A DNA stretch of 64,000 nucleotides, taken from assembly GCA_001914235.1 (NCBI GenBank), contig MQUF01000014.1, positions 2,005 through 66,004 of the forward strand, in the 5' to 3' direction. Numbering within the stretch: position 1 is the first letter of the stretch; every line of letters begins with the position of its first letter. Below, piece after piece: positions 15,829 to 45,320 of the stretch. This stretch comes from Desulfobulbaceae bacterium DB1 (GTDB taxonomy: Bacteria > Desulfobacterota > Desulfobulbia > Desulfobulbales > SURF-16). The notes below the pieces were generated by a model, which did no database searches, had not been told where the DNA came from, and saw nothing but the letters and a program-made list of their open reading frames with translations. Both the position numbers and the translations under genes were made by a program.

Positions 15829-15883
15829 TTCTAAAGCCTTTTTGCGGCACAGATTTACATAGAGATCCCCTCATCCATTGCAG

Positions 15884-17502: not shown

Positions 17503-17547
17503 TCAGGCCCTTTCCGAGGCCGAGAGGATCTAATAGCTTTGCCTCGT

Positions 17548-19310: not shown

Positions 19311-19398
19311 GCTATCTCTTCATCATATGCAAAAAACAACTCACTTTGCGGGCAAATCAAAGAGGGATTTTTCGTCTAATCCGTGATATATTTAAACC

Positions 19399-19587
19399 AT
19401 GCAAACGAAAAGCTTGAAAGAAACCAATCCTTATCTGAAAGCCCCGGTAACCCGGGAAAAAGGTTTGTGGTCCAGCGTGTCGTCATCATCGGCGATCGAA
19501 GGCGTCCATGTCACCAGAGAGAAGGTCACCGGCACGACGGTTACTTCTCCTCGTAAGCCTGAAGAGTCCGGTCAATCACCGCGCTGA
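19399..19587 (+). CDS. candidate FicA/VbhA/YhfG-like antitoxin (small ORF with SxxxEG inhibitory-helix motif)
   Basis: 62-aa ORF containing SSSSAIEGV, which matches the [S/T]xxxE[G/N] motif. Compare E. coli YhfG ASRRLEGV, recalled from memory. Convergent with fic and overlaps its 3' end by 47 nt. No clear RBS. Confidence 0.45.
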   Translation: MQTKSLKETNPYLKAPVTREKGLWSSVSSSSAIEGVHVTREKVTGTTVTSPRKPEESGQSPR

Positions 19588-20194
19588 AAAATTCTCCCAT
19601 GGGTTGATAATCCCTATCCATTCCCTTGCGTACAGCCGCAAAATACTCCTCTTTTCTTTCCCCCTCGAACTCACTGAAATCCAAGGGCGGCAATCCCGCC
19701 TGCAGGGCCATAAGCATTGCCAGAAGCCGGGACAGTCTGCCGTTTCCTTCGCGGAACGGGTGGATCAATAATAATTCGGTGTGCACAATTGCCAGGGCCT
19801 GGATCTGCTCCTCTCGATCTGCAAAGGTGCAGGGCGTAAATCGGCGCAACTCATTTTTCTCGAAATCCGCCATCAGTTGCGGGATGACTCTGGGCAAGGC
19901 AAAAGTAAACCCGCCTTTGCTGATGGTTACCTGCCGATATTTCCCAGCCCACTCATAGACCGGACCAAGCCAGTTGCGATGCATATTGCAGATGTCGCCA
20001 GCGGTGAATTGATGATCCTGATCGAAGATCTCGGTCATTTGTTCCGTGACCCGGTAGAGTTCTCTTGTTTCTAACTCTTCAATCTCCTGCTTGTCTTTTA
20101 TATGGAGAAGATTTTTGAGAACAAGTCCCCCGGATCCTGCCTCATATTGATCCTCAATGAAGCCGTCGGTTTTATATCGTCCGGACTTTTTCAT
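19541..20194 (-). CDS. fic: Fic-domain protein (AMPylase-type toxin, class I: no internal inhibitory motif)
   Basis: Canonical Fic motif HPFREGNGRLSRLL. About 217 aa from ATG 20194, 1 nt after the upstream stop. I find no [S/T]xxxE[G/N] within the protein. Confidence 0.88.
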   Translation of the reverse strand: MKKSGRYKTDGFIEDQYEAGSGGLVLKNLLHIKDKQEIEELETRELYRVTEQMTEIFDQDHQFTAGDICNMHRNWLGPVYEWAGKYRQVTISKGGFTFALPRVIPQLMADFEKNELRRFTPCTFADREEQIQALAIVHTELLLIHPFREGNGRLSRLLAMLMALQAGLPPLDFSEFEGERKEEYFAAVRKGMDRDYQPMGEFFSAVIDRTLQAYEEK

Positions 20195-20195
20195 G

Positions 20196-20675
20196 CTAGG
20201 CCGCCAAGGCCTCATTTAACTCTTCAATAATTACATCCGAATCCTCGCCAAAGAATTGATGCTCCCGGCTCAAACCACCTTCCGGGGTGGAAGGTGCATA
20301 ATCAAAATCGGTCGATCCCATCATCCCTGTCAACCGTGACACGAATACGTTCTGGATGTCGTCCGTCTCAATATCGATTGAATTGACCCGGTAGCCGACG
20401 GAGATTATGGCATCCAGATTATAATGGGTTAACGTTCGCCGAACCTGCCTTTTTCCCTCTTTTTGAACTGCCGAGAAATCCTCGGTAGTTGCTTTTTTCT
20501 CAAGTTCCTCATCCGCAAAAATATTTTTCAGATGGAGGCTGATATTGTCCGAGGAGGTGTCAAAGAGTTCTGCCATCTGCCTCTGGGTAAGCCAGACGGT
20601 GTCGCGGTCGAGCCGCACCTCAACGGTTCTCTCTTCTGCCTCATAGATAATTATTTCAACATGCTCATTTTGCAT
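20196..20675 (-). pseudogene. chimeric ORF: RhuM-family N-terminal ~100 aa fused in frame to hsdR tail copy 2
   Basis: N-terminus VEVRLDRDTVWLTQRQMAELFDTSSDNISLHLKNIF...HYNLDAIISVGYRVNS matches the RhuM N-terminal region (full-length RhuM is ~330 aa). C-terminus IETDDIQNVFVSR...DFDYAP...VIIEELNEALAA matches the HsdR tail. ATG at 20675 lies 1 nt after the hsdR stop. Confidence 0.7.
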
Positions 20676-20676
20676 A

Positions 20677-23475
20677 TCAAGCCGCCAAAGCCTCATTCAA
20701 TTCTTCAATTATCACATTCAACTCCTCGCCAAAAAGTTGGTGTACCTTTCCCAGCCCGCCTTGCTGGGCAAATGGCGCATAGTCGAAATCGTCGGTTTCA
20801 ATGCCGAGATTGGCGGCGATATGGTCGCGGATCATGATCAGCCAGTTACGCTGTTCGTCGGTAAATTTCCTGCCGCTTGCCTCCTGCTGGGCGAGCCAGG
20901 CCTTGAAGTTGGCCTCAACCTTTTCCGGAAACGGTACCAGCTCATTCTCCTGATGCATGGCAAAGCGGACCAGGGAAACAAGATCAGTCAAAATATGCGG
21001 GGCATTGGCCCCCTTGACCCTGGCCTTTTCCAGAGCCGCATAAGCATCCCAGAGATTATCAACCCGGAAATGGTGCGGCGGCTTTTCGATCCGAGCGGCC
21101 AGCTCCTTGATATCCGCAAAACGCAAGCGGCTCTTGTAGGGCCTGCTGTAGAGAACCTGCAGGGCGGTGATCTCGTCGCGGTTGTCGGCCAGAAACTGCT
21201 CGAAGGATTGGACCATGGACTTGACCTTTTCCAGGGCCTCGACGGAAAACGCGGCGGAGATCACCTGATCTTCACTGATGTTATCAATGATCTGCTCGTT
21301 CTTTCGCTTGACCTCGACCAGGAAGTTGCGGAGCGCCGGATTATGCAGCGGCCTGGTGGCCTCGACAATCAGTTTGACCCCGGCCTGTTTGATCTGCTCT
21401 TCGCTGGGCTCGGTGCCGCCGTTATCCTGCCTGGCCCTGTCAATCTGATTGTCGGGCTTGATGGCGGTGACCAGACCCGCGGTCAACTGTTCGATGGTCT
21501 TACCATTGGAAAGAAGGGTCACCTGGCGGTCATCCGCAGGGGTTATCTGGCGGCCGATGCGGGCCATGCGGGCGGCAAGGGACGAGATCACATCCGGCTC
21601 GGTATTGCCAAGCGCGATCGCCTGCAGGAGTTTTTCGAAACTGACCGTGGGCTTTCTCTCCATGGGCCGGGAATCGGTCTTGTCCATCTCGCAGACGCCG
21701 ACGCAATCGACAATGATGAAATGGTCCTTGACCCTGGCATCCGGGGTGACCGATTGTAAGTCGCTCTGGTTGATGATCCGGACGCCGCGGCCCTTCATCT
21801 GCTCGAAGAAGGAGCGGGAGCGGACGGCCCGCATGAACATGACGATTTCCAGCGGCTTGATGTCGGTGCCGGTGGCGATCATGTCAACGGTAACGGCGAT
21901 GCGGGGATTGAAGCTGTTGCGGAAGGAGGCGATCAGCTGTTCCGGCGTGCCGCCGGAGGTTCTGTAGGTGATCTTCTGGGCGAAATCGTTGCCCTTGCCA
22001 AACTCCTCGCGGATGATCTTGACGATATCCTCGGCGTGGCTGTCGTCTTTCGCGAAGATCAGGGTCTTGGGCACATATTCGCGGCCCGGAAAGATCTCGG
22101 TCAGCACCTTGTCGCGAAAGGTTTGGACAATGGTGCGGATTTGGTCGACGGCCACCACATCGCGGTCGAGCTTGTTGGGATCGTACTCGAAATCTTCATC
22201 GAGCTTTTCCCAGCGGGTGGTGCGGGTCTCGCGGTCGCGTTTGTCGATATAGTAGCCGGACTCAACCTTGGAGCCTGCTTCGGTGATCCTGGTCTTGATT
22301 CGGTAGACATCGTAATTGACGTTGACGCCATCGGCCACGGCCCGTTCGTGATCGTATTCCATCACCAGGTTGCGGTTGAAGAAGCCGAAGGTCTGCTTGG
22401 ACGGGGTAGCGGTGAGGCCGATGAGAAAAGCGTCGAAATACTCCAGCACCTGCCGCCAGAGGTTGTAGATGGAGCGATGGCATTCATCGGTGATGATGAA
22501 ATCAAAGGTTTCGATGGGGATATCGGGGTTGTATTCCAGGGGTGGGATTTCCTTGAACAGACTGTCCAGCCCGTGAGGCGATTGGTCCTCGGCCTCTTCG
22601 GGGAGCTCTTGGCCCCGGAGCATGGAGTAAAGCCGCTGGATGGTGCAAATGCAGACCTTTGCGGTGGTATCGATGGTGTTGGAGGTGAGGCGCTGGACGA
22701 TGAACTCCTCGCTGAACTTGTAATTGTTGTAGGGTGAGACGTATTGCTGGAACTCTTTTAAGGTCTGCTTGCCCAGGTTGCCGCGATCGACCAGAAAGAG
22801 GACGCGCTTGGCCCCGGCGAACTTGATGAGCCGGTAGATAATGGAAATGGCGGTGAAGGTCTTGCCGCTGCCGGTGGCCATCTGGATCAGCGACCGGGGG
22901 CAGTCGCGGGCCAGGGATTTTTCGAGATTTTTGACCGCCTGGATCTGGGCGGGCCAGAAACCGTCTTCGATGAGAGGCGGCATGGTGCGGAGGCGGCCCC
23001 GCAGGGTGGAATGCCGGCTGAGATATCCGGAAGTTGCTTCGGCGGTTTGGCTGGGGATTTTCTCTGCTTCCTCGAAAAGATACTCCGGCTTATGAAAGGC
23101 GAAGACCTGGCGGGAGCGGGGGGCGGGATCAAGGTTATTGGTAAATCTGGTCTCGTCGCCGGTGGATTCGTAACAAAAGGGCAGCGGTTTGGCCCAGGCA
23201 GGGAGGCCGTCGGGCAGGCCGTGGGCGTATTTGTCGGACTGGATCTCAACCCCGGTTAGCGTAGTGCCGGTCTTTTTGGCCTCGATGACGCCTGCGGCCT
23301 TGGCGTCCACATAGAGAAGATAATCGGCAAAGCCATGTCCGCTTTTCAGGGGAAATTCACGGATAGCCACGCCCTTGGCGGCAAAGATGTTGGTGTCCTT
23401 GACATCCTGAACCAGCCAACCGGCCTGGGTAAGCAGTTGATCTATTTTTTCGCGGGCGTGAATTTCGCAGGTCAT
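20677..23475 (-). CDS. hsdR: type I restriction-modification system, endonuclease/translocase subunit R
   Basis: 932 aa. N-terminal HsdR nuclease-like domain. Helicase motif I MATGSGKT, motif II ITDECHR, motif VI QMKGRGVR. C-terminal helical tail. Confidence 0.95.
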   Translation of the reverse strand: MTCEIHAREKIDQLLTQAGWLVQDVKDTNIFAAKGVAIREFPLKSGHGFADYLLYVDAKAAGVIEAKKTGTTLTGVEIQSDKYAHGLPDGLPAWAKPLPFCYESTGDETRFTNNLDPAPRSRQVFAFHKPEYLFEEAEKIPSQTAEATSGYLSRHSTLRGRLRTMPPLIEDGFWPAQIQAVKNLEKSLARDCPRSLIQMATGSGKTFTAISIIYRLIKFAGAKRVLFLVDRGNLGKQTLKEFQQYVSPYNNYKFSEEFIVQRLTSNTIDTTAKVCICTIQRLYSMLRGQELPEEAEDQSPHGLDSLFKEIPPLEYNPDIPIETFDFIITDECHRSIYNLWRQVLEYFDAFLIGLTATPSKQTFGFFNRNLVMEYDHERAVADGVNVNYDVYRIKTRITEAGSKVESGYYIDKRDRETRTTRWEKLDEDFEYDPNKLDRDVVAVDQIRTIVQTFRDKVLTEIFPGREYVPKTLIFAKDDSHAEDIVKIIREEFGKGNDFAQKITYRTSGGTPEQLIASFRNSFNPRIAVTVDMIATGTDIKPLEIVMFMRAVRSRSFFEQMKGRGVRIINQSDLQSVTPDARVKDHFIIVDCVGVCEMDKTDSRPMERKPTVSFEKLLQAIALGNTEPDVISSLAARMARIGRQITPADDRQVTLLSNGKTIEQLTAGLVTAIKPDNQIDRARQDNGGTEPSEEQIKQAGVKLIVEATRPLHNPALRNFLVEVKRKNEQIIDNISEDQVISAAFSVEALEKVKSMVQSFEQFLADNRDEITALQVLYSRPYKSRLRFADIKELAARIEKPPHHFRVDNLWDAYAALEKARVKGANAPHILTDLVSLVRFAMHQENELVPFPEKVEANFKAWLAQQEASGRKFTDEQRNWLIMIRDHIAANLGIETDDFDYAPFAQQGGLGKVHQLFGEELNVIIEELNEALAA

Positions 23476-33540: not shown

Positions 33541-33939
33541 GTGGAACAGCAATCTCTCTTGGATCTTCTTTATATTGCCGCTTTTACACTTTGCGGTCTC
33601 GGTTTCGGCTTCGGCCCCCTCCTCATTGTTTATTTCTTTGCACCCCGTGGAACCCGGCAAATCGTCAACAAGACAAGAATTCCTATTGAGTGCGGCATGT
33701 TGACCATCGGTCCAGCCTGGATTCGTTATGGAATTCTTTATTATCTTTATGCCTTGATGTTTCTGGCCTTTGATGTTGATGTGCTGTTTCTTTTCCCGGT
33801 GGCCGCTGTTTATAACGATTTCCCTGGTATGCGGGGTTTTGTCGAGATAGTTTTATTTGTCGGAATTCTTTCACTGGCGATTGTTTATGCATGGAATAAG
33901 GGAGTGTTCAAGTGGGAACGGAAAGTATACCAACAGTAG
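33541..33939 (+). CDS. nuoA: NADH:quinone oxidoreductase subunit A
   Basis: GTG at 33541 preceded by AAAGGAG 7 nt upstream. [19 protein letters not shown]. The track ORF from 33400 is probably an upstream over-extension. Confidence 0.8.
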
Positions 33940-34445
33940 AGAGTGCTATCCCCTCGGCATTGGTGCAGTTTCATCAATTGGATAAACTGCGTATGTTGGC
34001 CAGGGCGAACTCATTGTGGCCCATGACCTTCGGCTTGGCCTGCTGCGCCATCGAAATGCTGTCAAGCGGTTGCGCTCGTTTCGACCTGTCGCGTTTTGGG
34101 GCGGAGGTTTTTCGCCCGTCGCCGCGTCAAAGTGATGTAATGATCGTTGCCGGTACAATCAATAAAAAGATGATGCCCGCCGTTAAAATCCTCTATGACC
34201 AGATGCCTGAACCAAAGTGGGTTATCGCTATGGGAAACTGTGCGATTTCCGGTGGTCCATTTGTCTATCCGGGCCAATATAATGTAGTTGAAGGAGCGGA
34301 CACCTTTCTGCCGGTTGATGTCTATATTCCCGGATGTCCCCCTCGTCCAGAGGCCCTGATTGAGGGATTGCTGGAACTTGAGGAAAAAATTACCGGTAAT
34401 CGGCGTTGGCCGCGGGTGAAACCGGAAACTATGGTCAAAGGTTAA
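33912..34445 (+). CDS. nuoB: NADH:quinone oxidoreductase subunit B (N2 cluster)
   Basis: 177 aa. [14 protein letters not shown] and [10 protein letters not shown] Fe-S ligand motifs. Confidence 0.95.
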
Positions 34446-34526
34446 GCCAAGCCGGCATTTACCACTCTCAAATCCGGTAATGTATTTTCCTGCCGATTTT
34501 TGTGAGTCCACCTTCATGGTAACGTT

Positions 34527-35087
34527 ATGGATCGAGCTAAAATAAAAAGAGAACTGGAAAATTTGGCTGCTGAAGGTCTCCCTGCCGAGCCACCTCGGGA
34601 AGAGGCACCGGTTGAAGTTCAAGCTGAAGGAGAAGGTGAGGAAAAGGCCAAGGCCAAAGCCAAGAATGACGAGGCTGCCCCGCGGAAAAATGGTCTGATC
34701 GAGACGGAATATGCAAAAAGGGGCGCCCATCTTGATGTGCAGATCAACCCGGATCAGGTTGTCAGAGCTGCTGAAATACTTGATGGTGAAGGAATGACCC
34801 TGGAAATGGTGACCGGCGTTGACTGGCTCAAGGATGGTCAGCTTGAGGTCATCTATGATTACTCCTATTCCGGTGGGCAGTTGTTCCGAGTTGTGGTGAG
34901 GGCCAGGGTTGACCGGAACAATGCTGAAATTCCGACTGTCTGCCATATCTATGGCGGCGCGAACTGGCATGAAAGGGAGACATGGGAAATGCTGGGCATC
35001 AATTTTGTCGGTCATCCGCAGCTTGAACACTTCCTGCTGCCGGAGGATGCTGATTTCTATCCATTACGTAAGGATTTCAAGCCATGA
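34527..35087 (+). CDS. nuoC: NADH:quinone oxidoreductase subunit C, with ~55-aa charged N-terminal extension
   Basis: 186 aa. C-terminal NuoC core (GANWHERETWEMLGINFVGHP). N-terminal low-complexity EGEGEEKAKAKAKNDEAAPRK. Confidence 0.88.
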   Translation: MDRAKIKRELENLAAEGLPAEPPREEAPVEVQAEGEGEEKAKAKAKNDEAAPRKNGLIETEYAKRGAHLDVQINPDQVVRAAEILDGEGMTLEMVTGVDWLKDGQLEVIYDYSYSGGQLFRVVVRARVDRNNAEIPTVCHIYGGANWHERETWEMLGINFVGHPQLEHFLLPEDADFYPLRKDFKP

Positions 35088-36202
35088 GTTCATTAGCCCA
35101 AAGCCATTTGCGTGAGACCTTTGAGCTGAATATAGGTCCCCAACATCCTGCAACCCACGGTGTTCTTCGAATCAAGGTCGTCATGGATGGCGAATACATC
35201 GACCGGGCGGAACCAATCCTCGGCTATATTCACCGCATGCATGAGAAGATGGGTGAAAATAGAACATGGAACCAGTTCTGGCCAAATATGGGTCGTCTCG
35301 ATTATCTGTCCGCCATGGCATACAATCATTGCTATGCTGGTCTTATGGAGCGGGCTGCGGGGATTGAAGTGCCTGAGCGGGCTGAGTACATTCGCGTCAT
35401 TACAGCGGAATTAAACCGGATACAAAGCCATCTCTTGGGTTTTGGCGCCTATATCATGGATCTTGGCGGATTTACCCCTCTGATGTACGCCATGGATGAG
35501 CGCGAGCAGATCCTCGATCTGCTGGAGTCGGTCACCGGCTCCCGGCTCACCTACTGTTATTTCCGCTTCGGCGGAGTTTATAACGATATAGATGACGACT
35601 TCATCGCCGGAACACGCGCCTTTCTCAAGCGGTTTCGTCCGCAGATACCCATGTATCATAAGCTGGTTACCGGCAACGTCATCTTGATGGATCGGCTGAT
35701 CGGAGTTGGCCCCATTTCAGCTGAAATGTGCCGGAAATTCGGAGCGACCGGACCGGTTCTGCGTGGCTCAGGCGTAAATTACGATATTCGCAGAAATGAA
35801 CCGTACAGCGTCTATCCTGAATTGGATTTTGATATCCCGGTGTATAAAGAATGTGATTCAATGGCCCGCTACATGGTGAGAATGGATGAGATGTTGGAGT
35901 CCTGCCGGATCATAGAACAGGCCTTGAATAAACTGCCGGAAGGACCGGTAATGGCTGAGAAAGTACCCAAGGCGCTGAAACCTCCCGTCGGCGATTTTCA
36001 TTACGCGGTCGAAGCCGCCCGCGGTACATTTTCAATGAGGACAGTCAGTGACGGCACCAATACATCGTACCGTATGAGACTGAGGTCTCCAACCTATTCA
36101 AATGTCAGTCTGTTCGAGGAGGCAAGCCGCGGTATGCTGCTGTCCGACGCCCTGGCGTTTTTGGGAAGTCTTGATCCCGTTATACCCGAGATGGACCGGT
36201 AA
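35084..36202 (+). CDS. nuoD: NADH:quinone oxidoreductase subunit D
   Basis: 372 aa. LNIGPQHPATHGVLR, RAEYIRVITAELNRIQSHL. Confidence 0.95.
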   Translation: MSSLAQSHLRETFELNIGPQHPATHGVLRIKVVMDGEYIDRAEPILGYIHRMHEKMGENRTWNQFWPNMGRLDYLSAMAYNHCYAGLMERAAGIEVPERAEYIRVITAELNRIQSHLLGFGAYIMDLGGFTPLMYAMDEREQILDLLESVTGSRLTYCYFRFGGVYNDIDDDFIAGTRAFLKRFRPQIPMYHKLVTGNVILMDRLIGVGPISAEMCRKFGATGPVLRGSGVNYDIRRNEPYSVYPELDFDIPVYKECDSMARYMVRMDEMLESCRIIEQALNKLPEGPVMAEKVPKALKPPVGDFHYAVEAARGTFSMRTVSDGTNTSYRMRLRSPTYSNVSLFEEASRGMLLSDALAFLGSLDPVIPEMDR

Positions 36203-36214
36203 GGAGCGAGCACG

Positions 36215-37198
36215 ATGGATGAACTAATTCGATTACTTAGTTACATGATAGGCATCGCGGCCTTTCTTGGTCTGAATCTTGCCTATCTTGGCTGGGTTGA
36301 GAGAAAGGGCGCCGGTCATTTTCAACGGCGTACCGGACCGAAAGATGTTGGGCCGTATGGTTTGCTGCAGCCGCTTGCCGACGGTCTTAAACTGATGTCA
36401 AAGCAGCTGATTATTCCGGCCAATGCAGACAAACCGCTCTACATGTGTGCGCCGATCCTCATCATGGTGCCCGCGGTTCTCTTGTTTGTGGCGATTCCTT
36501 TTGGCGAACATCTGGTACCTCGGGAATTTAATTTCGGACTGTTGATGATGTTTGCCTTTGCCTCGGTGGGTGGTTTATCCATCCTCATCGGCGGCTGGGG
36601 TTCCGGTAATAAATATTCACTTATTGCCGGAGCCAGGGCTGTTTCACAGAATGTCGCCTATGAAATACCGATGTTGATCACGGCTATCAACATAGTCCTT
36701 ATCACCGGATCCATGGATCTGAATGAAATTGTCCGTCAGCAGGGTGGTTATATCTGGAACTGGAATATATTCCGGCTGGATAAATCCATTCTCATGCCTG
36801 TTTCCTTTCTGGTTTTCTTTATCTGTTCCCTGGCTGAAACGAATCGTACCCCGTTTGACATGGGAGAGTGCGAAGGCGAACTGGTTGCCGGGTATCATAC
36901 TGAGTACGGCGGTATGGGCTTCGGTCTTTTCATGATGGCTGAATATGCCAACCTTGTTATCGGCTGCAGCTTGACCACCATCCTCTTTCTCGGGGGCTGG
37001 CAGTCGCCCATCGGCATTTGGCCCGGTCCGCACTGGTTTCTTCTCAAGATGTATTTTCTTGTATGGTGTTTTGTCTGGATCCGCTGGACCTATCCCCGCA
37101 CCACATTCTGGGGACTCCTTAATCTTTCCTGGAAATACCTCATACCGTTTTCCTTGGTTAACTTGCTTCTAACAGCCTTATTTATAAAGGTATTTTGA
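36215..37198 (+). CDS. nuoH: NADH:quinone oxidoreductase subunit H (follows nuoD directly; no nuoE/F/G)
   Basis: 327 aa. WVERKGAGHFQRRTGP, LAETNRTPFDMGECEGELVAGYHTEYGG. Confidence 0.95.
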   Translation: MDELIRLLSYMIGIAAFLGLNLAYLGWVERKGAGHFQRRTGPKDVGPYGLLQPLADGLKLMSKQLIIPANADKPLYMCAPILIMVPAVLLFVAIPFGEHLVPREFNFGLLMMFAFASVGGLSILIGGWGSGNKYSLIAGARAVSQNVAYEIPMLITAINIVLITGSMDLNEIVRQQGGYIWNWNIFRLDKSILMPVSFLVFFICSLAETNRTPFDMGECEGELVAGYHTEYGGMGFGLFMMAEYANLVIGCSLTTILFLGGWQSPIGIWPGPHWFLLKMYFLVWCFVWIRWTYPRTTFWGLLNLSWKYLIPFSLVNLLLTALFIKVF

Positions 37199-37200
37199 TT

Positions 37201-37788
37201 ATGTCCGGATACTTTAAAGATATCATCACAGGATTGAAGAGTCTGGCCGTCGGGTTGCAGATTACCAATAAAGAGTTTCTGACCAAACCCATCACTCTGC
37301 AGTATCCCCATGAGTCAGTAAAGATGACGCCCCGTTACCGGGGTCATATTGAACTGGTCAAGGATCCGGAGACCGGACTGAACCGTTGTATATCCTGCGG
37401 CATGTGCGAAAAGGGTTGCCCATCCGGCTGTATCACCGTCAAATCAGAAAAACGCCCCGGAGTCAAGGGCAAGGTTCTGACAGCCTATATCCTTAACTTC
37501 ACCACCTGCAGTCTCTGCGGTCAATGTGTGGAAAACTGCAAGCCGGGTGCCATTGGCTTTTCCAATGAGTACAATCTGGCCAGCACCAGGCGTGAAGATT
37601 ACATTTTCGACCTGTTGCAAAGGCTTCATCCTGAAGGTGTTCCTGAACCAGAGGTTGATCCTGAATTATTAAAGAAAGAACTCGAGAAGCAAGAAGCTGC
37701 AAAGCAAGCAGCTGCGGCAAAGAAAGAACCCGCCAAAAAAACACCTGCTGCGGAAGGCGGGGAATCAAAAGCAGAGGGAAAAAGCTGA
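37201..37788 (+). CDS. nuoI: NADH:quinone oxidoreductase subunit I (2x[4Fe-4S]) with Lys/Ala/Glu-rich C-terminal tail
   Basis: CISCGMCEKGCP and CSLCGQCVENCP ferredoxin motifs. About 50-aa tail ELLKKELEKQEAAKQAAAAKKEPAKKTPAAEGGESKAEGKS. Confidence 0.9.
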   Translation: MSGYFKDIITGLKSLAVGLQITNKEFLTKPITLQYPHESVKMTPRYRGHIELVKDPETGLNRCISCGMCEKGCPSGCITVKSEKRPGVKGKVLTAYILNFTTCSLCGQCVENCKPGAIGFSNEYNLASTRREDYIFDLLQRLHPEGVPEPEVDPELLKKELEKQEAAKQAAAAKKEPAKKTPAAEGGESKAEGKS

Positions 37789-38321
37789 TGAATCCTTCAC
37801 TGTTATCACCCGAAGGTTTAGCCGGAGTTATTTTCCTGATCCTAATTTGCGTCACTGTGATCGGGGCGATAATTGCAACGTGTACAAAAAGATTGATCAG
37901 AAGCGTCAGTGGACTTGCCGTTTGCTTCTTGGGCGTTGCCGGGCTCTATTATTTCCTGAACAGCCCTTTTGTCGCCATGATGGAGCTCCTTATTTATGTT
38001 GGCGCGGTTTGTGTCACTATTGCTTTTGCCATCATGCTTGCCGAGCCGGATGAGGCTAGGTTGGCAAGAAAGTTAAGCGGATTAAGCGGCGGATTAGCTA
38101 CGGTCTGCGGTGGTGGTTTTGCATTCGCCCTTGGTTATGCCGCAGTGAACGCACAGTGGATGGCGCCCGCCACAAAGGTAAACGACGGATCTTTAAAGGC
38201 AATAGGTTATAGCCTGCTGACCAATTACAGCATGGTTTTTGAGCTTATTTCAATCGTATTGCTTGTGGCCATTGTCGGTTCCCTTGCCTTGGCTAGAAGC
38301 GGAAGAAGAGGCAATGCATAA
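37788..38321 (+). CDS. nuoJ: NADH:quinone oxidoreductase subunit J
   Basis: 177 aa membrane protein in the J position. MELLIYVGAVCVTIAFAIM. TGATG overlap with nuoI. Confidence 0.85.
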   Translation: MNPSLLSPEGLAGVIFLILICVTVIGAIIATCTKRLIRSVSGLAVCFLGVAGLYYFLNSPFVAMMELLIYVGAVCVTIAFAIMLAEPDEARLARKLSGLSGGLATVCGGGFAFALGYAAVNAQWMAPATKVNDGSLKAIGYSLLTNYSMVFELISIVLLVAIVGSLALARSGRRGNA

Positions 38322-38641
38322 TGTTAACACTCAGTACGCAGCTTAACACCTATCTCATTATCGGCGCCATCCTCTTCGGGTTCGGCATATTCGGTCTGGT
38401 TAGAAGGCCGAGTCTTATCGGCATGCTTATTGCGGTTGAGCTTGTTTTGAGCGGCGCATCCATTAATTTCATGGCCTTCAACCATTTTCTCGCACCTGAT
38501 CCCACGGTCGGGCAGATTATCACCCTTTTCATCATGGCCATTGCCGCGGCCGAAGCTGCCATTGCGCTCAGTATTGTGCTGGCGGTTTATAGAAACTATA
38601 AATCCATTGAAACTGAAGATCTGGTTGAACTGAACGGATAA
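38321..38641 (+). CDS. nuoK: NADH:quinone oxidoreductase subunit K
   Basis: 106 aa, 3 TM. IAVELVLSGASINF and AAAEAAIALSIVLAVYR are NuoK-like. TAATG overlap with nuoJ. Confidence 0.9.
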   Translation: MLTLSTQLNTYLIIGAILFGFGIFGLVRRPSLIGMLIAVELVLSGASINFMAFNHFLAPDPTVGQIITLFIMAIAAAEAAIALSIVLAVYRNYKSIETEDLVELNG

Positions 38642-38655
38642 TATCGAGGATTGCC

Positions 38656-40155
38656 ATGGAAACCGTTAACGCTGTCACAGGCGATATTGTCACCACGAGT
38701 AAGTTGGTTTGGGCGCTGATTGTACCTCTGCTGGGTTCATTTCTTGTGTCCCTGTCCGGCAAGAAACCGAATCTTCGGGAAACTTGGTCGGTCGTTTCCG
38801 CTGTCATACTGTTTACTCTGGTTACCACCCTGATTTCTCCGGTGCTTTCCGGGAAGGTTCTGTATTATCAGCTTTTTAAAATCTTGCCCGGGATTACGGT
38901 GACATTGCGGGCGGACGCTTTGTCCATGATCTTTGCCCTGGTCGCGTCATCCTTGTGGATTGCCGCTGCTTTCTATTCCATGGGCTATATGCGCGGGCTG
39001 CATGAGCATGCGCAGACTCGTTTCAACACCTGTTTTGCCATCGCCATCTTCGGGGCAATCGGAGTTGCCTTTTCCGACAACCTCTTTACCATGTATCTTT
39101 TTTACGAGATCGTCAGTGTCTGCACCTATCCGCTGGTCGCGCATCATCAGGACGACGAGGCATACGAGGGCGCCAAGAAATATATCGTATATCTGACCAC
39201 CACCGCCAAGGGATTTCTTTTGCCCTCCCTTGCGCTTATTTATGTCCTGACCGGATCCCTGGATTTCCCCCATAACATCAATACCGGTATTATTCCGGCT
39301 GATACAAATTCAGCCCTGGTCATCATGCTTTTTATTTTCTGCCTCTTCGGCTTTGCTAAAAACGGCGTCATGCCTTTTCATCATTGGCTTCCCGGTGCCA
39401 TGGTCGCACCGACACCGGTCAGTGCGCTGCTTCATGCCGTGGCGGTTGTCAAGGTCGGTGTTTTCTGCACCGCCAGGGTCATGCTTTATGTTTTCGGCGT
39501 CGATCTGATGGGCGCCTTGAACCTCGGAATACCCACCGCTTATTTTGTCGGTTTCACCATTGTCATGGCTTCCGTCATCGCCCTGACCAAGGACAATCTC
39601 AAGGCGCGGCTCGCCTATTCAACCGTCAGCCAGCTTTCCTATATTATCCTGGGCGTTTGCCTCCTCACTCCACACGGCATCCAGGGCGGACTTGTTCACA
39701 TTGCCAATCATGCCTTTTCCAAAATCACACTCTTCTTCTGTGCAGGTGCCATCTATGTCGCCACCCACAAGAAAAACATTTCCGAAATGAGTGGGCTGGG
39801 CAGGACCATGCCGTTTACCTTCGCCGCTTTTGCCATTGCCTCGCTCAGCATGATCGGTGCGCCGCCGGTGGCCGGATTTGTCACGAAATGGGAGCTGCTT
39901 GTTGGAACCATAGAGTCGGGGTCACTGGGCATCCTGCTGGTGCTGCTGGCCAGTACACTGCTCAACGTCGGTTATTTCGCGCCCGTGGCCTATAAGGCGT
40001 TTTTCGGAAAGCGTCCGGAGGGAGAACCTTATGTGGGTGTGCAGGAAGCTCCCCTCGCCATGGTTATTCCACTCTGCACGGCATCGGTTATATCTGTCAT
40101 ACTCGGCATTTATCCGGATTTTTTCATGAACTTCGTTAAAGTGGTGATAGGATGA
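38656..40155 (+). CDS. extra antiporter-like subunit (MrpD/NuoM-type proton-conducting membrane transporter), no lateral helix
   Basis: 499 aa. TM5-type Glu context LFYEIVSV. TM7-8 block PFHHWLPGAMVAPTPVSALLHAVAVVKVG. Sits between nuoK and the NuoL-like gene. Confidence 0.8.
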   Translation: METVNAVTGDIVTTSKLVWALIVPLLGSFLVSLSGKKPNLRETWSVVSAVILFTLVTTLISPVLSGKVLYYQLFKILPGITVTLRADALSMIFALVASSLWIAAAFYSMGYMRGLHEHAQTRFNTCFAIAIFGAIGVAFSDNLFTMYLFYEIVSVCTYPLVAHHQDDEAYEGAKKYIVYLTTTAKGFLLPSLALIYVLTGSLDFPHNINTGIIPADTNSALVIMLFIFCLFGFAKNGVMPFHHWLPGAMVAPTPVSALLHAVAVVKVGVFCTARVMLYVFGVDLMGALNLGIPTAYFVGFTIVMASVIALTKDNLKARLAYSTVSQLSYIILGVCLLTPHGIQGGLVHIANHAFSKITLFFCAGAIYVATHKKNISEMSGLGRTMPFTFAAFAIASLSMIGAPPVAGFVTKWELLVGTIESGSLGILLVLLASTLLNVGYFAPVAYKAFFGKRPEGEPYVGVQEAPLAMVIPLCTASVISVILGIYPDFFMNFVKVVIG

Positions 40156-40403
40156 TAACCTCGTTGATTCAATTTTTTCGCGATCGGTTAAAGACGACTA
40201 TTCTTGCCTGTCTCGTCTTGATCGGTCTTATCGCTCTCTGGGGATCATTCATGGTTGATACCAGCCATGCCCACACCGACATGGAGAAGCTGCCCTTTTT
40301 CTGGACTTTTTTCGGGTTGCTCGGCGGTGCCGTGCTTATTCTCCTCTCCCGGTTTATTGGAAGTTTAGGAATAATGACCCGTGAGGATTATTACGATGAA
40401 TAA
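40152..40403 (+). CDS. 83-aa two-TM membrane protein, coupled on both sides to antiporter-like subunits
   Basis: Two hydrophobic stretches (TTILACLVLIGLIALWGSFMV; FFWTFFGLLGGAVLILLSRFIG). ATGA overlap at 40152-40155. The downstream ATG 40396 lies inside its last codons. Confidence 0.6.
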   Translation: MITSLIQFFRDRLKTTILACLVLIGLIALWGSFMVDTSHAHTDMEKLPFFWTFFGLLGGAVLILLSRFIGSLGIMTREDYYDE

Positions 40404-42174
40404 TTTCTGGATGCACCCATCACTTATCCTTATCCTGGGCGGACTGCTCATCCCGTGCATGCGCGGTGTTGCGCGCAAGGCGTTTCTGCTTATCGTGCCG
40501 ACCATCACCTTTGTAACCGTGCTTTTCATGGACAAAGGAGTCTATGGGGTAGTTCAGTTTCTCGATTGGCACCTCACCTTTGCCAGGGTAGATGCTTTAA
40601 GCCAGATTTTTGCCTATATCATGTCGCTGATGTGTATTATCGGCACCCTCTTTGCCTTGAACGTTGAAGAGGATGGTCAGCTTATCGCCGCCTGGTACTA
40701 TGTCGCAGGCTCACTCGGAGTCATCCTCTGCGGCGATTACGTCGTGCTCTTTCTGTTTTGGGAACTGATGGCCTTTGCCTCGGTTTTTCTGGTCTGGTAC
40801 CGCAAGGGTCCTCAGTCAACGGCCACCGGCTACCGCTATTTGCTTATTCATACCATCGGCGGCTTATTTCTCCTGGCCGGTTTTGTTCTGCGGTACCACA
40901 ATACCGGAGGGGATCTGAGCTTCGGTCCATTGGGCGTTGATATGCCCAGTCTGGCAACCTATCTTATTCTTATCGGATTTATCGTCAATGCCGCTGTGCC
41001 GCCTTTTCATTCCTGGTTGCCGGATGCATACGCAGAAGCAAGTGTCGCCGGCGCCGTTTTTATGTGCGCCTTTACCACCAAAACGGCAATCTATGTTCTG
41101 GCCCGCGGATTCGCCGGTATGGACATATTGATCCCCCTGGGTGCGATCATGGCGCTGTATGGTGTTGTCTACGGCATCATCGAAAACGACAGCCGCAGGA
41201 TTTTCGCCTGGGATACGGTGAGCCAGGTCGGATATATGGTAGTGGGGGTCGGAATCGGCTCCAGTCTGGCAATTAACGGCGCCTGCGCCCATGCCTTTGC
41301 TCATATTCTTTATAACGGACTGCTTTTCATGGGCACCGGATCGGTGCTTTACATGACCGGCACGTCGAAATTAACCGAACTGGGCGGACTGTATAAAAAG
41401 ATGCCGCGCACCTTTATCTTTACCCTGATCGGCGGTCTTTCCATTGCCGGATTTCCGCTGTTCAGCGGCTTTGTCAGTAAATCAATGATCATTGCCGCCG
41501 GATTTTCATCTCACAATCTGTGGGCGGCTTTTGCCTTGACGCTGGCTTCGGCCGGTACCTTTCTGCTGGCCGGTCTCAAGGTTCCTTACTACATCTGGTT
41601 CGGCAAGAACAACTGTACCAGCGAACGGTGGGAAAAAGCCGCTGATCCGCCATGGAATATGCAGGCGGCAATGGCTATTGCTTCCGTGCTTTGTGCCTTT
41701 ATCGGCTGCTACACCGCTTACCTATACAACATGCTGCCCTTTCAGGTCGAGTTTCATCCTTACACCGCCTACCATTTGTCGGAAACATTGCAGATCATCG
41801 GCGGTGCCGGTTTGATTTTCTTTCTCCTGAAAAGGTACATGGAGCCCACCGCCACCATCAGTCTTGATCTTGACTGGTTCTATCGCATGGGAGGTCGGGC
41901 ATTCATGTGGGTTGACAGTAAAGTGTTTCAGGCCATTGATCTGGCCGTTGGTGAAATTTACCGGTATATCGGCATTTTCCCGCTGATGACCATTTCCCGG
42001 TTCTGGTCCTGGTTTGACTGGAATGCAATTGATGGCGTGGTGGACGGTACCGCCCGTTCGGTCAGAAACATCGGTGGTGTCGTCCGTCGGTTTCAGTCCG
42101 GCAATATCCAGTACAGTATATTTTTTGCTGCATCAATGGCCGCCGCTGCAGTTTTGGTCTTTGTTTTTGCCTGA
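40396..42174 (+). CDS. nuoL: NuoL/MrpA-like antiporter subunit with C-terminal lateral-helix segment
   Basis: About 592 aa. LFWELMAF, PPFHSWLPDAYAEASVAGAVFMCAFTTKTA. C-terminal amphipathic DGVVDGTARSVRNIGGVVRRFQSGNIQYS plus a final TM, as in NuoL/MrpA. Confidence 0.75.
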   Translation: MNNFWMHPSLILILGGLLIPCMRGVARKAFLLIVPTITFVTVLFMDKGVYGVVQFLDWHLTFARVDALSQIFAYIMSLMCIIGTLFALNVEEDGQLIAAWYYVAGSLGVILCGDYVVLFLFWELMAFASVFLVWYRKGPQSTATGYRYLLIHTIGGLFLLAGFVLRYHNTGGDLSFGPLGVDMPSLATYLILIGFIVNAAVPPFHSWLPDAYAEASVAGAVFMCAFTTKTAIYVLARGFAGMDILIPLGAIMALYGVVYGIIENDSRRIFAWDTVSQVGYMVVGVGIGSSLAINGACAHAFAHILYNGLLFMGTGSVLYMTGTSKLTELGGLYKKMPRTFIFTLIGGLSIAGFPLFSGFVSKSMIIAAGFSSHNLWAAFALTLASAGTFLLAGLKVPYYIWFGKNNCTSERWEKAADPPWNMQAAMAIASVLCAFIGCYTAYLYNMLPFQVEFHPYTAYHLSETLQIIGGAGLIFFLLKRYMEPTATISLDLDWFYRMGGRAFMWVDSKVFQAIDLAVGEIYRYIGIFPLMTISRFWSWFDWNAIDGVVDGTARSVRNIGGVVRRFQSGNIQYSIFFAASMAAAAVLVFVFA

Positions 42175-42239
42175 TCAAGGCTATGAAGCGATTTCAGGAA
42201 AATAACGAATATTAATAGAGTGAACAGAGGATAGTGGGA

Positions 42240-43745
42240 ATGGATTTTCTAATAATGAATGAAGGGTTTCCCCTTTTAAGTGCCCTTATCTTTCTCCCTT
42301 TGGCTGGTGCGTTTATCCTGCTTTTCCTGCCGGGCGAAAATGTGCAACGGATTTGGACCATGGTGGTGACTTCCGTTACCGCGGTCATTTCCTTTCCTCT
42401 GTACAGCGGTTTCGATTCCACCACGGCAAAGTATCAATTCGGTGAGCATATCGGGTGGATACCCTCGCTCAATATCAATTATACTCTGGGGATTGACGGC
42501 ATCAGCCTCCTGCTCGTGCTGCTGACAACCTTTATTATGCCGCTTTGTGTTCTCGGTTCCTGGACCTATATCCAGAAGCGGGTCAAGGAGTTCATGATAT
42601 GCCTGCTGGTTATGGAAACAGCCATGCTCGGCGTTTTCATGGCCCTTGATTTCGTACTGTTTTACATTCTCTGGGAAGCAATGTTGATTCCCATGTATCT
42701 TCTGATCGGTGTCTGGGGCGGGCCGAGAAAAATTTATGCATCGATCAAATTCTTTCTCTACACACTGGCCGGCTCCGTCATGCTGCTTGTCGCTATTATC
42801 GCGCTTTATCTCAAGACCGGGAGTTTCAGTATCCCGATGATGATGGGGCAGGACTATTCATCAACCTTTCAGATCTGGGTTTTTCTGGCTTTTTTTCTGG
42901 CATTTGCCATCAAAGTGCCCATGTTTCCCTTTCATACATGGCTGCCGGCCGCCCATGTCGAGGCACCAACGGCGGGCAGCGTCATTCTGGCCAGTATTTT
43001 GTTGAAAATGGGAACCTATGGTTTCCTGCGTTTCTGTCTGCCCATTACCCCGCTTGCGACCCTAAGCCTGGGGCCCTATGTTCTGTGGATGTCGGTGGCG
43101 GCCATTCTTTATGGTGGCTTCACCGCCCTGGCTCAGTCCGACATGAAGAAATTGATTGCCTACTCCAGTGTCGGACATATGGGATTTGTCACCCTGGGGA
43201 TCTTCTTCCTGAACCGACAAGGGTTGGAAGGCGCGTTGCTGCAGATGATTAATCATGGTGTGACGACGGGCGCACTCTTCCTTTGCGTGGGCATGATGTA
43301 TGAACGAACCCACAGTCGGGAACTTAAGGACCATTCGGGCATTGCCCAGAATCTGCCGATCTTTGTTTCATTTTTAACGGTATTTTCCTTGTCCTCCCTG
43401 GCTTTCCCAGCCACAAACAGTTTTGTCGGTGAGTTTATGGTGCTGGCCGGCGCTTTCAGTGTCAATAAGATTATTGCCGGAGCGGCAATTCCCGGCGCCA
43501 TCCTTGCCGCTGCCTACATGATGCGTTTGCTGCAATATGTCCTTTTCAAGGGACCTGGGCGGCCGGATATAGCCGATCTGAATGTAAGGGAAATCGTTAC
43601 ACTGACTCCATTGCTCTTTTTTGTTTTCTGGATCGGACTGGCACCGGAACCTTTTATCAGCGTCATGCATGCGAGCGTCGATTCCCTGCTGGAGCAGGTA
43701 AATCTGGCGAAATCCGCGCATGTCGCCCTGAACATGATACCGTAG
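42240..43745 (+). CDS. nuoM: NADH:quinone oxidoreductase subunit M
   Basis: About 501 aa. FYILWEAMLIPMYLLIGVWGG, PFHTWLPAAHVEAPTAGSVILASILLKMGTYG. Confidence 0.9.
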   Translation: MDFLIMNEGFPLLSALIFLPLAGAFILLFLPGENVQRIWTMVVTSVTAVISFPLYSGFDSTTAKYQFGEHIGWIPSLNINYTLGIDGISLLLVLLTTFIMPLCVLGSWTYIQKRVKEFMICLLVMETAMLGVFMALDFVLFYILWEAMLIPMYLLIGVWGGPRKIYASIKFFLYTLAGSVMLLVAIIALYLKTGSFSIPMMMGQDYSSTFQIWVFLAFFLAFAIKVPMFPFHTWLPAAHVEAPTAGSVILASILLKMGTYGFLRFCLPITPLATLSLGPYVLWMSVAAILYGGFTALAQSDMKKLIAYSSVGHMGFVTLGIFFLNRQGLEGALLQMINHGVTTGALFLCVGMMYERTHSRELKDHSGIAQNLPIFVSFLTVFSLSSLAFPATNSFVGEFMVLAGAFSVNKIIAGAAIPGAILAAAYMMRLLQYVLFKGPGRPDIADLNVREIVTLTPLLFFVFWIGLAPEPFISVMHASVDSLLEQVNLAKSAHVALNMIP

Positions 43746-43821
43746 CATTATTTACGGCGAGGCGGGCTGAGCCCTCTTGCTAAATAATAAGGCAAGCATA
43801 GAACATATATAAGGAATCAAC

Positions 43822-45237
43822 ATGTTGTTTGCACCAGAGTTATTACTGCTGATGGGAAGTCTGGTTCTCTTCTTTGTCACTCTCGGACAGGGGAAGGGAA
43901 AGCTGGCAAAAAACATTGCCTTGTTTTTAGCAGTGGCATCGAGTCTTTTGAGCCTGGCAACACTTCAGCTTGAGGGCAATTTGTTCTTTAACGCCTATCG
44001 CATTGATCTCTTTTCCCAGATTTTCAAGTTTGCCATGTCAATAGGCCTTGTTGCCGTTCTTATTTTCGGCAGTGACCTGAAAGGGATCAATAATTCGGTT
44101 CGGCCTGAGTATTATCTTTTCATGATACTCAGTATGCTGGGACTGGTTATGCTTGTCAGCAGCGTCGAACTGCTCACCCTGTTCATTGCCCTGGAGCTGT
44201 CATCCTACTCCCTCTACCTCATGGTGCCGATGCGCGATGATCGCGGCGGGTTGCGCATGCAAATGGAGGCGGCAATCAAATACATTCTATTTGGTGCGGT
44301 TGCCACCGCTACCATGCTTTACGGAATGAGCTTTATTTACGGACTCACCGGAACCACCTATTTCACCGAATTGATACCGAAGCTGCATGTGCTGGCATCA
44401 ACGCCGACGGCGATGTTGGCCATTGCCCTTTTCATGACAGGCTTTTTTTACAAACTCGCTGTGTTTCCCTTCCATTTCTGGGTGCCTGATGTTTATCAGG
44501 GTGCGTCAAACAGCACCACGGCATTTATCGCTTCAATTCCCAAATTGGGTGCCGTTGCCCTGCTCATTCGCATCACAACCCTTGTCGCACCCAATGGCGG
44601 TGAATCAGTGGTTATGATGCTGATGATCCTTGCCGTCTGTTCCATGTTTTACGGGAACCTCTCCGCCCTGGTGCAGACCGATGTCAAACGAATGCTGGGC
44701 TTTTCCGGTATTGCCCATGCGGGCTTTGTGATGCTCGGCCTCCTCACCCTTGATGATACCGGTTTTGCCACCTCGATGTACTACATTACAGGGTATCTTT
44801 TCATGAACCTTGCCTGTTTTCTCGTCATCTGCAAGGTTTCACAAAATGGAGAAAATGTCGTCATAAATGATTTCAGCGGTCTGTACAAACGCTCTCCATT
44901 ACTTGCCTTGACCCTGTTGGTCGGCATGATGGCACTGGCCGGTATACCGCCCTTTGTCGGGTTTATGGGCAAATTCATGCTGTTGACCGGGGCTCTGAAA
45001 GCAGGGCATCTGACCCTGGTCATCCTGGCGGCGCTTAATACCGCGATTGCAATTTATTATTATCTATCCGTCGTGCGGGTGGCATTCTGCAGTGCACCGG
45101 AAGAGCGTCCCGATGTTTCAGTTGATTTGATGACGCGTTTCGTCAGTATTTCTTTGATAGTTGTCATCATCGTCATGGGCGTTGCGCCGAAACAGGTTTT
45201 ACAGATTGCAACCAGCGCGGTGCGAACGATTCTTTGA
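43822..45237 (+). CDS. nuoN: NADH:quinone oxidoreductase subunit N
   Basis: 471 aa. LFIALELSSYSLY, FPFHFWVPDVYQGASNSTTAFIASIPKLG. Confidence 0.9.
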   Translation: MLFAPELLLLMGSLVLFFVTLGQGKGKLAKNIALFLAVASSLLSLATLQLEGNLFFNAYRIDLFSQIFKFAMSIGLVAVLIFGSDLKGINNSVRPEYYLFMILSMLGLVMLVSSVELLTLFIALELSSYSLYLMVPMRDDRGGLRMQMEAAIKYILFGAVATATMLYGMSFIYGLTGTTYFTELIPKLHVLASTPTAMLAIALFMTGFFYKLAVFPFHFWVPDVYQGASNSTTAFIASIPKLGAVALLIRITTLVAPNGGESVVMMLMILAVCSMFYGNLSALVQTDVKRMLGFSGIAHAGFVMLGLLTLDDTGFATSMYYITGYLFMNLACFLVICKVSQNGENVVINDFSGLYKRSPLLALTLLVGMMALAGIPPFVGFMGKFMLLTGALKAGHLTLVILAALNTAIAIYYYLSVVRVAFCSAPEERPDVSVDLMTRFVSISLIVVIIVMGVAPKQVLQIATSAVRTIL

Positions 45238-45266
45238 TCTTCCGTCTTGCTGCATCATTTCCATTG

Positions 45267-45320
45267 GTCCGAGTTGATTGCTTTTGCCTGGCAGATCAAC
45301 TCGGACGATGCCTTTTTTTT
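45267..45320 (+). terminator. intrinsic terminator of the nuo operon
   Basis: About 16-bp stem (ggtccgagttgattgc / gcagatcaactcggac, one bulge), 9-nt loop, then gatgcc + T8 (45313-45320). Confidence 0.6.

Follow-up and report, generated by a model that had tools for sequence, protein, structure and literature searches.

A complex I operon of Desulfobulbales in which an apparent Mrp-derived three-gene cassette takes the place of NuoL

Variants of complex I that carry extra pumping subunits inform on how many protons are moved per electron pair and on how the lateral helix couples or braces the membrane arm. A 64-kb stretch of the metagenome-assembled genome 'Desulfobulbaceae bacterium DB1' (hereafter, the window, that is, the whole stretch of DNA analysed) poses the question of which proteins can make up such an arm. 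Thirteen consecutive open reading frames (ORFs) on the + strand, at 33541-45237, correspond to nuoA-B-C-D-H-I-J-K, followed by genes for proteins of 499, 83 and 592 amino acids (hereafter, X, s and Y, respectively), nuoM and nuoN. An earlier examination of this DNA by its letters alone (hereafter, the sequence-only reading) had arrived at the same gene order, in agreement with our ORFs and Pfam/NCBIfam assignments, and tentatively interpreted the locus as a complex I with an MrpD-like subunit and a small partner inserted between NuoK and NuoL, in a layout that it could not match to a described class. What, then, are X, s and Y, and is there a NuoL in this operon? Our analysis indicates that the locus probably encodes one membrane complex, a complex I without the N-module (NuoEFG) and with a membrane arm of the 'green' type, in which NuoL is replaced by an Mrp-derived three-gene cassette.

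Family identity and genomic contexts of X, s and Y

Subunits were assigned by scoring the predicted proteins against Pfam and NCBIfam profiles with the family cut-offs. Against the NuoL profile TIGR01974 (cut-off 407.5), X (38656-40155, + strand) scores 210 bits and Y (40396-42174, + strand; 597 aa if started at GTG 40381) scores 159 bits, neither qualifying as canonical NuoL; against the NuoM profile TIGR01972 (cut-off 263.8), X reaches 177 bits. Instead, X passes NF006236, 'monovalent cation/H+ antiporter subunit D' (824.5 bits, cut-off 663), and Y passes NF009310, 'Na(+)/H(+) antiporter subunit D' (708.7 bits, cut-off 564); both proteins contain PF00361, and X additionally shows a weak match to PF00662. 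Judged by these profiles, X and Y both lie far below the NuoL and NuoM cut-offs, and Y, which the sequence-only reading had called NuoL-like, is not NuoL; no canonical NuoL is found among the products of the operon. Among solved sequences, the nearest to X are MbhH, followed by NdhF, MrpA and subunits of MBS, and the nearest to Y are a 618-aa MBS subunit and MrpA. In a neighbour-joining tree (built without bootstrap), X forms one clade and Y another over all genomic contexts, including that of Sinorhizobium meliloti; NuoM and NuoN group with their E. coli namesakes, with X placed apart from NuoM.

The gene arrangement is not peculiar to one genome. Related loci were collected with 10-kb flanks from one genome per species, and gene orders were counted in the best 80 of at least 535 loci. 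All 80 come from Desulfobulbales (Desulfobulbus, Desulfogranum, Desulfocapsa, Desulfurivibrio, Desulfobia, Desulforhopalus and others, cultured strains included), and the order A-B-C-D-H-I-J-K-X-s-Y-M-N is identical in every sufficiently long locus among them. Across 68 of the more distant Desulfobulbales species, NuoB alone (median identity 76.7%) is better conserved than X (75.2%). Homologs of Y with 68-69% identity occur in Fundidesulfovibrio, of the Desulfovibrionales (P0381 and P0388), so that the cassette extends past Desulfobulbales within Thermodesulfobacteriota. An operon denoted 'NUO11+M' has been listed for Desulfovibrio africanus (Degli Esposti 2015, PMC4758237) and may represent the same layout under another name.

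More distant relatives of X, retrieved by an exhaustive HMMER search, place the three genes in several other settings. P0135 (51% identity; metagenomic loci L087 and L088) belongs to an operon with the order nuoA-B-C-D-E-F-G-H-I-J-K-X-s-Y-M-N, which combines EFG with the K-X-s-Y-M-N block; thus, the presence of the cassette is independent of EFG loss. P0137 (L090) is encoded in an Mrp-type operon, where mrpE-F-G, MbhD/E-like genes, mrpB, mrpC and mrpD are followed by X, an s-like ORF of 82 aa and Y. In another Mrp-type operon, that of P0139 (L095), X and Y also follow mrpD, with a 163-aa ORF between them instead of the hairpin protein of about 83 aa; this ORF (L095 11510-12001) matches Pfam Biotin_lipoyl. 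Finally, P0136 is a natural fusion of X and Y (1090 aa; L091 644-3916) clustered with NuoK-like and NuoB-like genes, and the region of its lateral helix is about 30 aa shorter. Other fusions of antiporter-like proteins include P0165, P0176, P0177, P0179 and more, some of them 1250-1290 aa long with three antiporter-like domains.

Two further observations concern the more distant nuo loci. In L088, a nuoM/nuoN pair of another nuo operon (1-1955) ends just upstream of nuoA, that is, two complex I operons lie in tandem. When the proteins of L087/L088 and L093 are compared to those of the window, X, Y and NuoM are about 50-55% identical, and NuoA, C, H, I, J, K and N about 29-41%. This excess could reflect either co-transfer of an X-s-Y-M block or a stronger constraint on these subunits.

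The same membrane-arm block is found in rhizobia. A tblastn search with X against plasmids and chromids yielded 210 records, mostly from Sinorhizobium, Rhizobium and Ensifer, with 54-57% identity. On the S. meliloti replicon pSymA, the genes run nuoJ, nuoK, 'MrpD family protein' (487 aa), a hypothetical protein (84 aa), 'Na+/H+ antiporter subunit D' (586 aa), nuoM, nuoN, nuoA, (B), C, D, E and F. When the window proteins were compared to this region, X matched with 545 bits, Y with 589, M with 538, N with 230, and s with E = 1e-7; the 84-aa protein shares the REDYYD motif with s. Thus, the layout does belong to a described class, with the same K-X-s-Y-M-N block on pSymA and on many Rhizobium and Sinorhizobium replicons, and the 499-aa gene is, for the most part, a routinely annotated component of a known Nuo/Mrp hybrid, NCBI's pipeline routinely assigning names to both X and Y proteins. 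For X of the window, a database entry with 100% identity exists.

Taken together, the gene neighbourhoods and homology point to X-s-Y as a single conserved three-gene cassette of Mrp-antiporter origin that stands in for NuoL. Because the three genes travel together in nuo operons with or without EFG as well as in Mrp-type operons, the cassette appears to replace NuoL rather than to be added to it, and the proposed insertion of an MrpD-like subunit with its partner next to a resident NuoL finds no support.

Subunit features and the rest of the operon

To compare charged residues, the four antiporter-like subunits were aligned to E. coli NuoL, M and N. All four contain the glutamate of transmembrane segment (TM) 5 in recognizable contexts (LFYEIV, LFWELM, ILWEAM and ALELSS) as well as PFHxW(L/V)P blocks, just as the sequence-only reading had it. 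However, the full pump signature that it ascribed to all four is incomplete in Y because the TM7 lysine upstream of the PFH block, present in all the other subunits, is replaced by Asn198. This asparagine is invariant in 50 Y homologs and is found also in the Y proteins of every other genomic context examined; likewise invariant are the TM5 glutamate E123, K229 in TM8, H299 and H303 in TM11, and K362 in TM12. X has the complete set of charged residues of the NuoL/MrpA type (E151, K235, H260, K266, H348, H352, K356 and K411) and lacks TM15, the lateral helix and TM16, its alignment to NuoL, M and N stopping with the shared core. Some relatives in the X family (P0158 and P0208) carry a helix-plus-TM extension of their own.

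An amphipathic C-terminal segment followed by a final TM is present in Y only, as had been noticed from the sequence. The AlphaFold2 model of Y (predicted local distance difference test (pLDDT) 81.6) consists of the core, TM15, one long helix spanning residues 492-563 (72 residues), of which the second half is modelled with low confidence, and, at 570-591, a terminal TM. The best Foldseek match of this model is MrpA of Bacillus pseudofirmus (7qru_A, TMq 0.77), with NdhF and NuoL next, and a phmmer search of the C-terminal 172 residues against the PDB produced chance matches only. By its predicted structure, then, Y belongs to the MrpA-N/NuoL class, its lateral helix of about 72 residues being flanked by TM15 and TM16. 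Between TM15 and TM16, Y has 91 aa where E. coli NuoL has 79; with the DxDW motif as the starting point, the segment measures about 79 aa in Y compared to 59 aa in E. coli NuoL.

The small protein s (40152-40403, + strand), a hairpin of two TMs with no Pfam or NCBIfam match, carries a C-terminal (R/K)EDYYD motif that is common to its Desulfobulbales, EFG-type, rhizobial and Mrp-type versions, with homologs in the EFG-type nuo operon, in S. meliloti and in one of the Mrp-type operons. It is always encoded between X and Y, and is present in every sufficiently long locus except L065, in which tblastn found no match. Its conservation is weak but consistent (median identity 45%). We considered s as a possible remnant of TM15/TM16 of X, an origin left without support by a search with the s profile of 150 diverse X relatives, the window proteins and the E. 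coli Nuo subunits, which found no credible relative except P0283, a probable mis-called fusion.

The remaining genes, all on the + strand, are those of a complex I core, with NuoA, B, C, D, H, I, J, K, M and N all recognized by Pfam and NCBIfam in the one operon. The first gene, nuoA (33541-33939), encodes 132 aa from GTG 33541, with a longer ORF from ATG 33400 and an AAGGAG-like ribosome-binding site; PF00507 is detected in the identical gene of L001-L003. The longest ORF of nuoB (33912-34445; PF01058) starts from GTG 33912, and gene callers start it at 34023 (140 aa); the protein contains the tandem-Cys motif of the N2 cluster. NuoC (34527-35087; PF00329) begins with a charged extension of about 55 aa. 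The quinone-site subunit NuoD (35084-36202; PF00346, 301 bits; NF004739, 428 bits, cut-off 360) contains the GPQHPATHG motif and lacks the NiFe Cys motifs. It is followed by nuoH (36215-37198; PF00146, 372 bits; NF004741, 324 bits, cut-off 305) and by nuoI (37195-37788; Fer4 families; TIGR01971, 109 bits), whose product carries 2x[4Fe-4S] and ends in a Lys/Ala/Glu-rich tail of about 55 aa. Next come nuoJ (37788-38321; PF00499, 108 bits) and nuoK (38321-38641; PF00420, 76 bits; NF004320, 77.8 bits, cut-off 57). Downstream of the cassette, NuoM (42234-43745; 503 aa; TIGR01972, 597 bits, cut-off 264) has Glu400 in TM12 as in canonical NuoM, and NuoN (43822-45237; 471 aa; TIGR01770, 353.5 bits, cut-off 332.6) has a lysine at the TM12 position. 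The tail of NuoI is limited to the closest relatives (L001-L018), NuoI elsewhere in Desulfobulbales being 146-155 aa long; that this tail forms a docking surface for an acidic donor, for example, ferredoxin, is a speculation.

The genes are tightly packed. The gap between nuoD and nuoH is 12 nt, such that no E, F or G is encoded between them, and the I/J and J/K junctions overlap by 1 nt, X/s by 4 nt and s/Y by 8 nt, matching the overlaps of 1-8 nt described before. With E. coli NuoE, F and G as queries, tblastn detected no homologs in the window or within 10 kb of the 80 related loci, which agrees with the earlier observation that the operon contains no E, F or G. A hairpin with a 12-bp stem and a 16-nt loop followed by T8 (45266-45320, + strand), read from the sequence, is likely the end of the operon; a simple scan for promoters and terminators performed no better than on shuffled sequence and missed this long hairpin 3' of nuoN. 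Thus, the view of the locus as one co-transcribed EFG-less complex I operon, not of the 2M type, with four antiporter-like subunits and a conserved 83-aa two-TM partner, is upheld.

The operon is surrounded by housekeeping genes, namely, mreB, rodA, pbp2 and a Mur ligase gene, and then rimP-nusA-infB-pnp. Elsewhere in the window, a 573-aa ORF (726-2447, - strand) with a weak Cytochrom_c3_2 match probably encodes a multihaem cytochrome c, and the 555-aa ORF that overlaps it on the opposite strand is probably spurious. An IS110-family transposase gene (4433-5698, + strand; PF01548 and PF02371) lies in a block of low GC content (0.465 at 4001-6000 compared to about 0.52-0.58 around it). A type I restriction-modification island occupies 14332-23475 (- strand) and consists of hsdM (14332-15828), a gene for an AAA_14/DUF4143 ATPase (15884-17353), hsdS (17548-19014) and hsdR (20677-23475).

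Proposed enzyme and alternative explanations

In the enzyme that we propose, all 13 products would assemble into one complex, with N, M, X and Y as four antiporter-like subunits in line. X would provide the pump core of the NuoL/MrpA type and, with it, the NuoL-type proton path, and Y would supply TM15, the lateral brace helix and TM16, as NuoL does in canonical enzymes; because the operon encodes no canonical NuoL, Y would be the sole source of the brace helix. The small protein s would be an obligatory membrane partner, and NuoM and NuoN would be conventional. Together with the path through NuoH/A/J/K, four antiporter-like subunits would amount to one proton path over the canonical enzyme, that is, about 5 H+ per 2 e-, an estimate made uncertain by the asparagine at the TM7 site of Y. 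Proton chemistry rather than Na+/H+ exchange is expected because the operon lacks the Na+ module proposed for Mrp (MrpB, E, F, G and the MrpA C-terminal domain).

The Q-module (NuoBCDI, with the canonical quinone site of NuoD) would connect menaquinone, which the host probably uses, with ferredoxin or another low-potential donor or acceptor. In the forward direction, the complex would act as a ferredoxin:menaquinone oxidoreductase and, in reverse, it would provide low-potential reductant for autotrophy or sulfur disproportionation. On general bioenergetic grounds, electron transfer from NADH to menaquinone could not pay for five protons, and that from ferredoxin to menaquinone could. These energetics fit the absence of EFG and would allow autotrophic sulfur disproportionators to run the reaction backward, with quinol reducing ferredoxin.

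The subunits could be arranged physically as N-M-X-Y or as N-M-Y-X, and we lean slightly toward the former, with Y distal and its helix running back over X and M. In this order, X, with its residues of the NuoL type, would adjoin NuoM as NuoL does. Also in its favour, the Mrp-type operons with D, X and Y have a helix of three-subunit length, and X and Y are both most similar to MBS subunits, the lateral helix of MBS being described as just long enough for its two antiporter-like subunits (PMC8165549). For N-M-Y-X speak the predicted helix of 72 residues (about 108 Å) and the TM15-TM16 segment, both of a length suited to three rather than four subunits; the extra 26 aa that Manganitrophus has for one more NuoM (PMC9040806); and the canonical operon order L-M-N, which runs from distal to proximal.

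Several points weigh against the proposed enzyme. The lateral-helix segment of Y exceeds that of E. coli NuoL by about 12-20 residues, which, by sequence comparison, is too short to clamp four subunits in the way proposed for 2M enzymes. Y itself may not be a normal pump, given the TM7 asparagine in every context. That X and s belong to the assembled enzyme is a prediction from genes and homology, and ferredoxin is a candidate electron donor; NuoEFG or another input module could be encoded outside the 64-kb window. The natural X-Y fusion P0136 gave no help with the geometry: its AlphaFold2 model, computed from an alignment of seven fusion sequences only (MAFFT placed added Y homologs on the X half), was too poor, with a pLDDT of 66 and values below 50 over the C-terminal ~170 residues.

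The second of these points bears on the most serious alternative, to which we give roughly a one-in-three standing at best: the four subunits would assemble without an extra pumped proton, Y being degenerate and mainly a structural brace, and X doing the job of NuoL, for a yield of about 4 H+ per 2 e-. Such a division of labour would account for the invariant asparagine at the TM7 position of Y in all contexts and for the complete NuoL-type charged set of X, including H260, H348, H352, K356 and K411. Having no lateral helix, X needs a partner for one; relatives in the X family with their own helix-plus-TM extension exist. The TM5 glutamate, Lys229, His299, His303 and Lys362 of Y are nevertheless invariant, which is more than a pure scaffold needs. 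Furthermore, MbsH is listed with Glu219 on the charged axis where MbsH' has Lys217 (PMC8165549), which, taking these positions as listed, suggests that the TM7 site may vary in working subunits.

Two other alternatives question the composition of the complex, and we regard both as improbable. That X, s and Y constitute an Mrp-like cation/proton antiporter of their own, merely co-transcribed in the nuo operon, could be suspected from the NCBIfam name 'antiporter subunit D' of both large proteins, from the trio in a genuine Mrp-type operon (L090) and from X and Y in a second one (L095). However, neither the operon nor the rest of the window encodes MrpB, E, F, G or the MrpA C-terminal domain (the proposed Na+ path), and the operon would be left with no lateral-helix subunit if Y were discounted. 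In 80 species and two other lineages, the cassette keeps its place between nuoK and nuoM, the junctions overlap, and X is about as conserved as NuoB, all of which makes a separate antiporter very unlikely. Even less probable is membership in the 2M class, in which NuoM occurs twice and NuoL is longer by about 26 residues. The locus does resemble the Nitrospira clade-3 2M operons, which PMC6606698 describes with four antiporter-like subunits and no NuoEFG, and E. coli NuoL has a somewhat shorter helix segment than Y. Nevertheless, X is not of the NuoM type, falling well below the TIGR01972 cut-off and forming its own clade; the helix-bearing Y is not NuoL and, in a comparison made with rhizobial and E. 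coli sequences, shows no 26-aa insert relative to rhizobial MrpD2; and nuoH is present in the window.

We thus favour the N-module-less complex I with the cassette in place of NuoL. A bolder extension, which we offer tentatively and would not bet on, is that an EFG-less complex I of the green type is the standard enzyme throughout the order Desulfobulbales, sulfur disproportionators and relatives of cable bacteria included. In this extension, the cassette would have been borrowed from three-pump Mrp antiporters, the 83-aa protein would be an obligatory subunit that had escaped notice, the TM7 site of the brace subunit would be re-wired, and about 5 H+ per 2 e- would be moved between ferredoxin and menaquinone, possibly in reverse. 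Such an enzyme would represent a distinct bioenergetic solution of wide distribution instead of a peculiarity of rhizobia.

If the enzyme assembles in this way, an Mrp-derived two-pump module with its own small subunit would be used well beyond rhizobia. Cultured Desulfobulbus and Desulfogranum would then be sources for the structure of a four-pump arm and for tests of ferredoxin-linked or reverse operation in sulfur-cycling anaerobes. There is also a consequence for annotation: because the only label that X and Y currently receive is 'Na+/H+ antiporter subunit D', reconstructions of the pathways of these organisms will tend to show a complex I lacking NuoL along with a spurious partial Mrp.

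Relation to known complex I variants and Mrp antiporters

A hydrogenase-type (Mbx/MBS) complex is ruled out by the quinone-type NuoD motif without NiFe ligands along with canonical NuoH, A, J and K. The locus resembles the 11-subunit EFG-less complex I of anaerobes, Chlorobi and cyanobacterial NDH-1 in the lack of an N-module in the operon, in the canonical cluster and quinone-site motifs of NuoB and NuoD, and in the presumed donor other than NADH. In contrast to those enzymes, which have a canonical NuoL or NdhF and three antiporter-like subunits, the window encodes 13 proteins, four of them antiporter-like.

With Mrp antiporters, the window shares the cassette (X-s-Y after mrpD in L090, X and Y after mrpD in L095), the affiliation of X and Y with the NCBI 'antiporter subunit D' families, and a Y subunit that is structurally nearest to MrpA. 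Unlike L090 and L095, where such genes adjoin those of the cassette, the operon in the window has no Pfam match to MrpB, E, F, G or the MrpA C-terminal domain. Compared to the solved Mrp and MBS complexes (7qru, 6z16 and 6u8y), it has a complete NuoABCDHIJK redox/quinone module instead of the proposed Na+ module of Mrp.

2M complex I (Chadwick et al. 2018) likewise has a fourth antiporter-like subunit, and some 2M clades have no NuoEF. In this class, as presented in PMC6606698, the extra subunit is a NuoM paralog, and NuoL is kept but lengthened, whereas the window has an Mrp-type pair and a small protein for NuoL. Papers citing that work propose a higher H+/e- ratio and reverse electron transport to ferredoxin for 2M enzymes.

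Complex_I_3 of 'Ca. Manganitrophaceae' (PMC9040806), for which reverse operation from quinol to ferredoxin has been proposed, resembles the window in having two MrpD-like subunits in place of NuoL. It differs in a second NuoM, for five pumps, and in a 26-aa insertion in the lateral helix of MrpD2; the window has one NuoM and no such insertion. Indeed, when the window Y is aligned to the rhizobial Y, the lateral helix shows single-residue gaps only, such that Y apparently lacks the 26-aa insert of Manganitrophus MrpD2 and 2M NuoL; the TM7 asparagine is common to both proteins.

The closest counterpart is the green complex I of Rhizobium and Sinorhizobium, in which, according to PMC9040806 (citing Degli Esposti & Martinez-Romero 2016), NuoL is replaced by two MrpD-like subunits; about 5 H+ per 2 e- is proposed there for green and 2M enzymes. 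Limited text searches returned no publication that describes the layout in Desulfobulbales, and the literature searched included no purified or solved enzyme of the green type. Nor did it mention the protein s with its (R/K)EDYYD motif, the TM7 asparagine of Y or the order-wide EFG-less form; s with its motif, the asparagine and the sharing of the cassette with three-pump Mrp operons are possibly unreported. The K-X-s-Y-M-N block is the same in both systems, with X corresponding to 'MrpD1' and Y to 'MrpD2', and the pair is homologous to the rhizobial pair. By these sequence comparisons, the membrane arm encoded in the window is the green-complex-I arm, and the layout belongs to a described, biochemically uncharacterised class. 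The differences are in the remainder of the enzyme and in the host. The rhizobial operon on pSymA includes nuoE and nuoF, where the compared sequence ends, and the window has no EFG. The rhizobial order, for which PMC7415380 notes a 'peculiar rearrangement of gene order', is permuted to J-K-X-s-Y-M-N-A-B-C-D-E-F..., whereas the window and all 80 Desulfobulbales loci keep the canonical A-B-C-D-H-I-J-K-X-s-Y-M-N. Finally, the hosts of green complex I are ubiquinone-using aerobes and symbionts, in contrast to the anaerobic Desulfobulbaceae host of the operon described here.

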